Assembly (NCBI GenBank): GCA_963770835.1
Contig: CAVYRH010000004.1
Coordinates: 384,001-448,000 of the forward strand
Source: an uncultured Pseudomonadota bacterium
GTDB lineage: Bacteria; Oederibacteriota; Muellerivitia; Muellerivitales; Muellerivitaceae
Direction: 5' to 3'
DNA length: 64,000 nt
Shown here: in pieces, positions 4,708-7,611 of the stretch
Layout: each line of letters opens with the position of its first letter
Numbering within the stretch: the first letter of the stretch is position 1
Notes under the pieces: generated by a model
What the model was told of the DNA's origin: nothing
What the model saw: the letters and a program-made list of their open reading frames with translations, nothing else
Databases searched by the model: none
Program-made: the position numbers and the translations under genes

Positions 4708-5638
4708 GTGCGCTTAAAGTATTTCCGTTTCCTATTGGCCGTTCCCTTGGTTTTGACAGGGATGGCAGGCAAGGCGGTTTCAAAACCCGTGTCGAAAACC
4801 TTCCAAAATCCCATCCTCACCGGCTTCCATCCCGACCCCAGCGTTTGCCGGGTGGGGGAGGATTTTTACCTCACGAACTCCACCTTCGAGTTCTTCCCGG
4901 GCCTTCCCATCTACCACAGCCGCGACCTGGTCCATTGGGATCAGGTCGGCAACGCCTTGGACCGGCCCAGCCAGCTTCCCCTTAAGGGGGCGACGGACTC
5001 CGGCGGCCTCTACGCGCCGACGCTGCGCTATTGGAAGGGGACCTTCTACCTGGTCTGCGATAACGTCAGCGGGGGAGGGAATTTCATCGTCACCGCCAAG
5101 GACCCGGCGGGCCCCTGGTCCGAACCGGTCTGGGTGAACGACTACGGGATCGACGGCTCCCTATTCTTCGACGATGACGGGAAGATCTATTACCACCGGG
5201 CGGGCGCCGACAACGGGAACGGCATTTCCCAGGGGGAATTGGACCCTTCCACCCTGAAGCTCAAGGCACCCTTGAGGAAGATCTGGGAATATCCGGGCGA
5301 ATGGAACGAAGGCCCCCATCTCTATAAGGTCAACGGGACCTACTATCTGATTTCCGCGACCGGCGGCACCGAAAGCCACCACCAGGAAGTCGTGGCCCGA
5401 TCCAAAAGCCCTTGGGGCCCCTTCGAATCCAGCCCCCACAACCCGATGCTGACCGAGCGTGACGACCTGAAAAGCCCCATCCAATGCGCCGGCCACGCAG
5501 ACCTGTTCAACGCCCCCGATGGAACCTGGTGGGCGGTTTTCCTGGGGACTAGGCCCCAAGACGGAATGTCCGTGCTGGGCCGGGAGACCTTCCTGGCGCC
5601 GGTGGAGTGGACGAAGGATGGCTGGCCCATCGTGGGCA
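4708..5638 (+). CDS. GH43 beta-xylosidase/arabinofuranosidase, exon 1 (signal peptide and catalytic domain)
   Basis: NPILTGFHPDPSVCRVGEDFYL, YAPTLRY, EGPHLYK, GHADL, LGRETFLAPVEW-GWP; homology-like sequence stops abruptly after GWPIVG. Confidence 0.9.
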
Positions 5639-6439
5639 TCGTGCCAGAGGAGGGTTTGCAGAGCCAGCAGGTGAGGGAGTAGGCCGATGAGGGTCAACCC
5701 AAGTCCTGACCAGGTAATCACCAGAGAGCCTGGAAGTCAGCCCCCGGCGTAGGATCGAGAGGTCCTGCCCGAAACGGGGTCATAAACCTCATTTAGTGAG
5801 GGAACAATCCAGCAGTCCGCAACATCAAGTGAATCCTGCCGCTTCGTGAATGGGACACCGAAAGGTGCAAGGGGATGCCGAGCCGCGTGTCTACTGGCGA
5901 AGGCCACGATCCCGCTGAAGAATCTGGTAGCAAGCGGGGCAAGTCCTCCGGAGTATGGGGAACGGAATGTTGGAAAGGCTATGCAAGCAAGCTGGGAGAT
6001 CCTACCCGCCAAAAGACTTGCCGCTATAAGGCTAAAACCGAAAAGAGGCAAGGGTGGGAGGAAGTCGGAGGGGGTCACAGTACCGATGAAGGGGTGGACA
6101 ACAAAACCACCCTGAGGGAAGGACCCCTGCTTCAACCATGTGTCTCAAAGAAGGTAGGCGCTGGAGCATGCCCCAAAAAGGGCCAACAACTCTGTAGTAC
6201 CAAAGCGCGAGGCCTTTGACAACAGGCACTATGCCGAGCGGCCAAGGGGGAAGTCGAACCTGTAAAGCCGCCGGAGGAGAGGTTGTCGGAAAGCCGTATG
6301 ATCGAAAAGGTCACGTACGGTTTGACGAGGGGGCGCTGGAAACGAAGTGATGAGGGAACCTCGTTGGGGCACGGAACCGGAAACGGGGAAACAGATCAAG
6401 GAACCCTCTGCACACCATCGCGCCAGTGCTCTACTCTGC
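5639..6439 (+). ncRNA. ORF-less group II intron, 801 nt (boundaries +/-2 nt)
   Basis: D5 at 6290-6323 (AAAGCCGTATGATCGAAAAGGTCACGTACGGTTT, AGC triad). D6 pairs 6327-6339 with 6423-6436, with bulged A6433. D3-like segment at 6061-6133; GTGCC at 5641. Removal joins the GH43 halves in frame. Confidence 0.9.
6168..6246 (+). pseudogene. Remnant N-terminus of a group II intron-encoded RT
   Basis: ATG...MPQKGPTTL*, then after a frameshift KARGL*QQALCRAAK. This resembles the KVRxLQRxLYxAAK start of intron RTs and lies in the D4 position. Confidence 0.6.
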
Positions 6440-7611
6440 AGGACCATCACGTGGCTTTGGAAATGGAAGCGCCCAAGCTCCCACCACCCCCTCGTATGCC
6501 GAAGCCCGGCGACCGTGAGAACTTCAGCGCAAGGGGGTTGGGGCCCAGGTGGCTCCATATCCGCAATTTCGACCCGAAGAATTTCTCGTTTGAGGAGCGC
6601 GAAGGCTACCTGCGTATTCGGGCCGCGAAGGATAGCCTCGACAACCGTTGGGAAGGACCGGCTTTCGTGGGCCAACGCCAACCCGCTTTCCGTTTCACCG
6701 CCCGCACCGAAATGGAATTCGCTCCCCAACAAGACGGGGAAGAAGCGGGTCTTTGCGTGAGGGCCAACGAGGGCAACCATTACGAGATCGGCATAAGGAA
6801 GTTCGAAGGGAAGACCCAGCTATTCGTGCGCAACCGGATTATGAACCGGGAATATCTGATGGCCCAAGAGCCGGTGGCCTTAGGCCCGGTCCAATTGGAG
6901 ATATCGGGGTCCGAGGAGAAGTACCAGTTCGCCTGGTCCGCCGACGGCAAAACCTGGTCCACCCTCGCGGTTTGCCCCACCGCCGACCTTTCCCGGGAAA
7001 AAGCCGGGGGCTTTACCGGTACCACCCTCGGCCTCTACGCCACCGCCAACGGTAGGGATTCCCAGGCCTACGCGGATTTCGAGTGGTTTGAACTGCGTCC
7101 CGGTGTTGCCCCCCAACAAGGCCCGCTTACGCGCCGCCCCTCACCGACCCCATTAACCCCCTCGGACCATTGGCGAATCCTCACGAACCGGGAGGACTAC
7201 CGGGACAAGGCGGGTCTGGATTGGTCCTGGGATGTGGGTTATTCGGGAGGTGAGACCAACCGGAGCTGGGGGGGTATCGGGGGGGCCACGGACCAGGAGC
7301 TTTTCCAGCACGAGCGCTTCGGCAAGGATTTCAGCTATACCCTTCCCGTCTTGCCGGGCAAGTACCAGGTCCGCCTCAAATTCGTGGAGACGGCCGTGAA
7401 GAACAAGGGGGAAAGGGTCTTCGACGTCCTCATCAACGGGAAAAAGGCCCTGACTGGTTTTGACATCCTCCAAGAGGCGGGTGGCCCCGATAAGGCCCTC
7501 GAGAAGACATTCCGGGACGTCGCCCCCGACGCCCAGGGACAGATCACCCTTCGGTTCATCGCGTCCGCCGGGGACGCCAAGGTCTGCGCCATCGAGATCG
7601 AGCGCCAATAA
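6440..7611 (+). CDS. GH43 exon 2: beta-sandwich (GH43 C-terminal) domain plus malectin domain
   Basis: EEAGLCV and GGFTGTTLGLYA; malectin motifs ERFGKDFSY, VRLKFVE, RVFDVLING, AIEI. In frame with exon 1 (spliced product ~700 aa). Confidence 0.85.

Follow-up and report, generated by a model that had tools for sequence, protein, structure and literature searches.

A group II intron interrupts a glycoside hydrolase gene in the window (the whole 64,000-nt stretch of DNA analysed here), and its ends raise the question of how its splice sites are recognized: it begins with UCGUG and ends with GC, and in this it deviates, as a first-pass annotation had pointed out, from GUGYG...AY. That annotation, whose quoted letters are all present where it placed them, took these ends as the mark of a lineage with a short 5′ extension or unusual splice-site recognition. 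The comparisons reported below argue with high confidence for a different answer, namely a IIB intron of ordinary recognition with compensated U·G termini, reverse-spliced into a look-alike of its usual site in the GH43 gene, with lariat splicing presumably kept.

The intron and its host gene

On the forward strand, to which all coordinates refer, the 5′ exon (4708-5638) encodes a beta-xylosidase-like GH43 glycoside hydrolase catalytic domain (PF04616, E 3e-92), and the open reading frame of the 3′ exon (6440-7611) matches GH43_C2 and malectin domains. GH43 relatives that are 70-91% identical have uninterrupted frames of 703-756 codons, and excision of 5639-6439 yields a GGC-AAG-GAC junction within a 710-codon GH43 frame. 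The same 710-codon frame is restored by four equal-length excisions, with Lys, Gln, Met, or Ile at the junction, so that the frame by itself has no power to choose the boundary. Homologs with empty sites, which the first-pass annotation had recommended for this purpose, do select one: at the 17 intron-free GH43 loci that were scored (19 were fetched, and 17 matched the motif), the junction codon specifies Lys in 10, Gly in 3, Asn in 2, His in 1, and Arg in 1, with Ile, Met, and Gln in none of the 17, and two of the intron-free relatives (L055 and L058) read GTG GGC AAG GAC. The segment 5639-6439 is assigned as the intron because it is the sole in-frame option giving AAG, as in the intron-free relatives, which bears out T5639 as the 5′ end and Lys from among the four residues listed as candidates. 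Five further insertion sites, subjected to the frame test, gave short frames only and were uninformative.

The 3′ end at C6439, likewise proposed at the outset, coincides with the end of an Rfam match (RF00029, 6289-6439, 41 bits); group II D1 (5695-5827) and this D5/D6 segment are the only Rfam matches in the window. All 18 family 3′ ends in the source genome (G000) agree with it and read CTCT[AG]C; since the next base is A in 17 copies and G in one, the A that follows the final C is assigned to the exon.

The excised element is an ORF-less intron of 801 nt, as compared with 800 nt in nine sister copies, the extra base lying in an A-run near 6175 in D4. The same domain holds the decayed start of a reverse-transcriptase ORF (6168-6245), as seen against MPEKANNS...LYRAAK of sister introns. 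D5 (6291-6323; Rfam match and fold) contains the catalytic AGC at 6292-6294 and a 5-nt GAAAA loop, and D6 (6327-6436) folds with a bulged branch A6433 at position -7 (z -2.4 for 6292-6441). J2/3 is GGA (6067-6069), and by alignment gamma G6067 pairs with gamma′ C6439; stem I(i) and gamma-gamma′ are invariant inside the family, and the outgroup L093 has AGA in J2/3 and an intron ending in T. The gamma, epsilon, and stem I(i) assignments used here follow the general IIB structure. The element has the AGC triad of D5, the bulged A of D6, an EBS1-IBS1 pairing upstream of the box, and an EBS2-IBS2 pairing, as expected of group IIB, together with the 5-nt D5 loop, extra Id3 bulge, and alpha′ location of IIE/IIF introns; judged by these RNA features, it is an ORF-less, class E/F-like IIB intron. 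The 431-aa protein of sister introns carries RVT_1 and GIIM only, the endonuclease domain being absent. In a protein tree with five named references, from which class E, g4, and basal F references are absent and four protein-less loci were left out, the family proteins group in a clade of their own (99/97) at an open fork, with g1, g2, g3, and unclassified references outside it.

The 5′ box and the pairing with the exons

The box UCGUG (5639-5643) occupies the GUGYG register: relatives start with TCGTG, GCGTG, GTGTG (L037 and L112), or GCGCG (L028) in the same column, always followed by CCAG, the sequence of B.th.I3 starts with GCGTG at its published boundary (PMC3552965, Table S2), and the consensus is elsewhere given as GYGYG (PMC2396441). 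Its first two nucleotides are U1 and C2, and G3-U4 (G5641-T5642) form epsilon, which pairs with epsilon′ AC (5774-5775; usually GC). In alignment A1, which comprises 23 distinct 5′ regions and their exons and excludes L118 (unrelated after its first part) and L112 (interrupted by an insertion), the pairing is present in 23 of 23 rows and is supported by one two-sided change, with G3-U4 facing AC in 22 rows and G3-C4 facing GC in L028. If the intron were instead read as two nucleotides preceding a GTGCC, the second epsilon pair would be a C-A mismatch in 22 of the 23 rows. Because the relatives share the register and the epsilon pairing fits it, UCGUG is the box itself and there is no 5′ extension; the earlier reading of the 5′ boundary was out of register and is hereby corrected. 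Directly downstream, CCAG (5644-5647) constitutes the 5′ strand of stem I(i), the other strand being CTGG (5992-5995); all 23 rows are identical here, so that the stem is conserved but shows no covariation.

The loop of the hairpin 5911-5938, which had been read as EBS1, proves to be alpha′. Its TCTGGT (5923-5928) covaries with alpha, ACCAGA (5720-5725), in the Ib loop: the four core pairs occur in A1 (where L079 is gapped at alpha′) as CCAG/CTGG, CCTG/CAGG, CCCG/CGGG, and CCCA/TGGG, with 11 and 2 two-sided changes and zero broken cells, whereas a fifth pair fails in 11 of 22 rows. A stem-loop tip is the site of alpha′ described for IIE/IIF introns (PMC3753933). The 7-bp match of TCTGGTA with TGCCAGA near the intron's own 5′ end does exist in the window copy, but the meaning attached to it does not hold: 0.22 matches of that quality are expected by chance in 860 nt, four of the seven bases arise from CCAG serving both stem I(i) and alpha, and the suggested covariation of 5923-5929 with 5642-5648 amounts to zero two-sided changes, the central pair being broken in 11 of 22 relatives and the same loop base covarying with alpha in 11 of 22.

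The 5′ exon is contacted by EBS1, TGTCTAC (5888-5894), which forms 7 bp, two of them G-U here, with IBS1, GTGGGCA (5632-5638); 97.5% of cells are paired, two-sided changes occur at 4 of the 7 pairs, and EBS1 follows targets of relatives such as GTGGACA, TATGACA, and ATTGGCA. IBS1 ends at 5638 and the box begins at 5639, so that exon pairing adjoins the intron directly with no spacer. EBS1 is carried by the Id3 hairpin with its internal GA/GAA loop (5877-5904), which is assigned by comparison in A1 and is not recovered in an isolated fold of 5870-5950 (z 0.27). EBS2, ATGGG (5850-5854), in the segment after GTGAA, pairs with IBS2, CCCAT (5626-5630, positions -13 to -9), and in relatives, judged by eye, a change in EBS2 is accompanied by one in the exon, with two registers in use. 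T5947 is a candidate EBS3 for exon A6440, in partial agreement with the relatives: A follows 17 of 18 3′ ends, and the candidate is G with exon C in L111 and mismatched in L073 and L112. Across the whole pairing model, 96.3% of cells in A1 are paired, with two-sided changes in 7 pairs (31 cells); none of 500 shuffles reached as high and slid controls gave 19-39%, figures that are not a probability, since the rows are related.

A second complementarity, that of CCACGAT with the exon sequence ATCGTGG, is likewise real in the window copy, but it is fully Watson-Crick in 4 of 23 relatives and paired in 74.5% of cells, well below EBS1, and relatives that share the target have CAACAAT or CAATAAT in its place; by this comparison it is a linker. 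A lineage with 2 nt added before GTGCC, an EBS1-like loop pairing with the intron's own 5′ end, and CCACGAT reading the exon is thus exceedingly improbable: shifted 5′ sites are known (PMC4424553; PMC4024640), both complementarities occur here, and the combined structure is 77.5% paired against 74.9% in shuffles, but two relatives have canonical GTGTG in the very column of TCGTG, the proposed helix is not conserved and the linker varies in relatives as just described, and the known shifted-site introns are without EBS2 and branch A (PMC4024640), both of which are present. Unusual splice-site recognition fares no better, as homologs show the canonical register, AC ends, EBS1 paired with the exon, and an unconserved internal pairing, the very observations that the first-pass annotation had named as counting against its own proposal.

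The first and penultimate nucleotides

The 3′-terminal GC (6438-6439) places a G at the penultimate position, and this G6438 covaries with U1. The coupling is strict: among 20 distinct complete types, 12 are U1...GC, 8 are G1...AC, and none is mixed. These types derive from 54 complete records, partly redundant, that reduce to 19 distinct types plus L112 (the end of L111 was set by hand), and they come from one family and one same-phylum genome and are mosaic, hence not independent. No columns other than positions 1 and n-1 show this 12/8 split; the two form the sole perfect 5′-3′ pair of 3128 (minor state at least 3) and have the highest mutual information of 9044. Searches with short 5′ patterns, which missed some true ends and gave chance matches, added no complete introns and no mixed types.

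The first and penultimate nucleotides of group II introns form a non-Watson-Crick pair needed for the second step, and in RmInt1 a penultimate G alone impairs that step (PMC4238363; PMC3669008). The pair has been described as corresponding, in group II introns, to the G-G/A-C termini pair of spliceosomal splicing, and U-G termini are listed both for a natural intron, TeI4h, and for a compensatory mutant (PMC8283771, Table 1A); they also occur in UHB.I2 (UUGCG..GU; PMC7923331), in the fungal rnl-576 intron (UUGCG..GGU; PMC12308204), and in aI5gamma double mutants (Chanfreau and Jacquier 1993, as cited in PMC4238363); the available text of PMC6224600 and PMC4748821 has nothing on the pair. In the window intron, contact between U1 and G6438 would replace the usual G·A pair, and given that U·G is a known alternative to G·A, lariat splicing through A6433 should persist and would rejoin the exons as GGC-AAG-GAC. 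The intron is thus a new instance of a known termini variant rather than a new splicing mode. The openly accessible literature searched yielded no report of this lineage or of UCGUG...GC ends.

Shared descent might suffice to explain the coupling if U1 and the penultimate G were each tolerated alone, without compensation. The state does cluster by genome and on the 5′ tree, where 2 to 13 of 500 shuffles gave a value as low, and independent events are few. Against this, a single U·G clade is rejected (p-AU 2.6e-39); the trees need 3-4 (5′ tree), 4 (D5/D6 tree), and 3 (protein tree) changes of state, of which strong branches force 2, 2, and 3, respectively; opposite-state nearest relatives are up to 94.7% identical, whereas same-state types go down to 67-70%; and the 5′ and 3′ trees disagree, which makes the family mosaic, yet the ends are always matched. 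Combined with the defect caused by a penultimate G alone in RmInt1 (PMC4238363), these findings leave descent without compensation an improbable account, and the compensated U·G pair is preferred.

The distribution of the two states among hosts suggests a further, more tentative idea. Across 31 family genomes, 36 3′ ends are GC (G000 14, G027 13, G010 5, G021 3, G030 1) and 15 are AC (G002 5, G000 4, G012 2, and G004, G020, G009, and G030 1 each), and confirmed 5′ ends agree with the 3′ state wherever both are known. Confirmed ends are all U·G in G027, G010, and G021 and all G·A in G002, G012, G020, and G004; G010, G021, G020, and G002 each contain at least two sub-lineages that share a single state, both states occur in G000 and in G030, and one D6 subtype has AC in G000, G012, and G009 but GC in G021. 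It is conceivable, if doubtful, that the termini pair is a switchable module that spreads between co-resident intron sub-lineages within one host; it is rated low because G000 and G030 are mixed, the numbers are small, and horizontal transfer of a whole set could mimic the pattern. If true, it would imply end-specific gene conversion or a preference of the reverse transcriptase resident in the host, mixed ends being removed, and would supply near-isogenic natural pairs for the geometry and cost of G·A as compared with U·G; the first intron base lies within a block of ~37 nt shared with the target palindrome described below. The family in any case offers a clean natural covariation series for a pair whose support, in the literature examined, comes from mutants, a single crystal structure, and isolated introns, and relatives that are 94-95% identical yet differ in the pair make it easy to test.

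Separately, related introns of Leptospira plasmids (L107, L171, L172, and L173) apparently carry ~60 conserved extra 5′ bases, with no GUGYG-like box before CCAG, and on sequence grounds are possibly a true 5′-extended lineage. The L. noguchii copies terminate in GC and those of L. interrogans in AC, with what seems to be the same putative 5′ end, so that a penultimate G may sometimes occur without any visible change at base 1.

Targets, spread and known systems

The source genome contains 20 family 5′ ends and 18 3′ ends. Ten copies are ORF-less (the window copy of 801 nt and nine of 800 nt), two further copies have an IS110-like transposase in D4, and six diverged sisters have a reverse transcriptase, three of these also with the IS110-like insertion; the IS110 label is one that we assign from the look of the protein. 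A 387-codon IS110-like element lies antisense in D4 of five copies (G000:C11:93912, C26:878013, C2:200661, C26:616734, and C3:39444), and the insertion point corresponds to ~6180-6190 of the window, where the reverse-transcriptase ORF has only just begun. Twelve near-identical copies have their first 490 and last 150 nt in common, and the element has therefore spread recently, presumably mobilised in trans by the reverse transcriptases of sister introns.

Insertion usually occurs directly after a 28-bp palindrome, of which the source genome has 78 sites within 5 mismatches, 10 of them occupied; no empty alleles of the cassette sites were found within that genome. The GH43 exon mimics the right arm of this palindrome, matching it at 12 of 13 bases (5626-5638), and the intron would have reverse-spliced there, the site being read through EBS1-IBS1 (7 bp up to the splice site), EBS2-IBS2 (5 bp), and the candidate EBS3 with A. 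When the rule is set at 5 Watson-Crick pairs for EBS2 and 7 pairs for EBS1, with at most 2 G-U and the last two bases fixed as CA, 27 genome sites satisfy it, 3 of them outside palindromes: the GH43 site (then A) is occupied, and the two others (then G or C) are empty. The insertion accordingly illustrates a cassette-targeting intron that obeys its pairing rule in entering a chromosomal gene, the frame of which it leaves unbroken.

Several observations concern the targets of related introns. Co-oriented arrays of the palindrome, spaced at 0.5-2 kb, separate short genes in the manner of integron cassettes (G000 contigs C3, C4, C11, C12, C15, C16, C17, C22, C23, and C26; e.g., C15:1016-27891). 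Three intron lineages share the palindrome at different positions, some palindromes holding two introns: an intron ending CGACCCTAC is inserted after ~base 11 (G000:C3:3660, C11:1950), a G004 intron (L093:~960-2870; GCGCG...CTCTAT) after base 19, and the window family after base 28. A G·A-type sub-lineage (G000:C2:234144, C19:427462, L072-L075, and L079) targets TGACAC-N3-TATGACA with matching EBS2 (GTGTC) and EBS1 (TGTCAT or TGTCTT). Firmicutes relatives (L110, L162, and L163), which start with GCGTG or GTGTG, lie immediately downstream of terminator-like hairpins with T runs, a location usually credited to class C. Nesting also occurs: D3 of one family member (L114:349-3020; G021:C42) houses another group II intron, and L076 lies inside the reverse-transcriptase gene of another intron; at G027:C26:140561-141473 (L175), two partial 5′ halves, one with small indels, lie head to head ~900 bp apart, which may be an assembly artefact. 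A scan of viral contigs with the Id3 pattern gave 36 matches, and among the matches listed all were chance coding matches.

Even with the ends as described, splicing could be so poor in the cell that the copy amounts to a knockout of GH43 by insertion. Poor splicing is frequent among bacterial introns, the source genome has a second GH43 gene of 71% identity (G000:C8), and the 17 scored relatives are without the intron. Contigs from 4 of 22 RNA runs contain intron pieces from relatives and one intron-free allele, with no spliced-exon, lariat, or circle junction among them (best share, 0.19); the single contig spanning the GH43 junction, considered as spliced RNA, differs at 29 letters and belongs to an intron-free relative. 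The ribozyme, on the other hand, is shared without difference by eleven further copies that spread recently; no exon pairing is disrupted, and excision restores the frame exactly. A knockout is accordingly possible but rather unlikely, and it is compatible with the preferred reading, a IIB intron with compensated termini, in all but the last step, the splicing after which GH43 would be expressed.

Among known systems, the closest likeness is to class E/F introns (Pe.th.I2, Ge.ur.I1, and Cl.be.I2; PMC3753933; g1-g4 in PMC3552965), with which the family shares IIB structure, alpha′ at a stem-loop tip, the Id3 bulge, the 5-nt D5 loop, and, in the sister introns, proteins of ~430 aa with reverse-transcriptase and maturase domains only; it differs in its UCGUG...GC ends, in the lack of an ORF here, and in a protein clade that excludes the five named references. 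IIC-attC introns and IIB introns beside attC (PMC4424553; PMC7923331) likewise insert at a repeat dividing gene cassettes, whereas the target here is a 28-bp palindrome read by full EBS1 and EBS2 pairing. C.te.I1 and the fungal rRNA introns with shifted 5′ sites (PMC4024640; PMC4424553) are similar only at first sight, in that bases seem to precede a GUGYG-like word, for the present intron has no spacer, retains EBS2 and the branch A, and is mobile. Finally, TeI4h, UHB.I2, rnl-576, and the aI5gamma double mutants share U1 with a penultimate G, but they are single cases in other classes (IIB and CL1), whereas this family, in which position 2 is also C in place of U, has both states side by side among relatives of up to 95% identity and has changed between them repeatedly.
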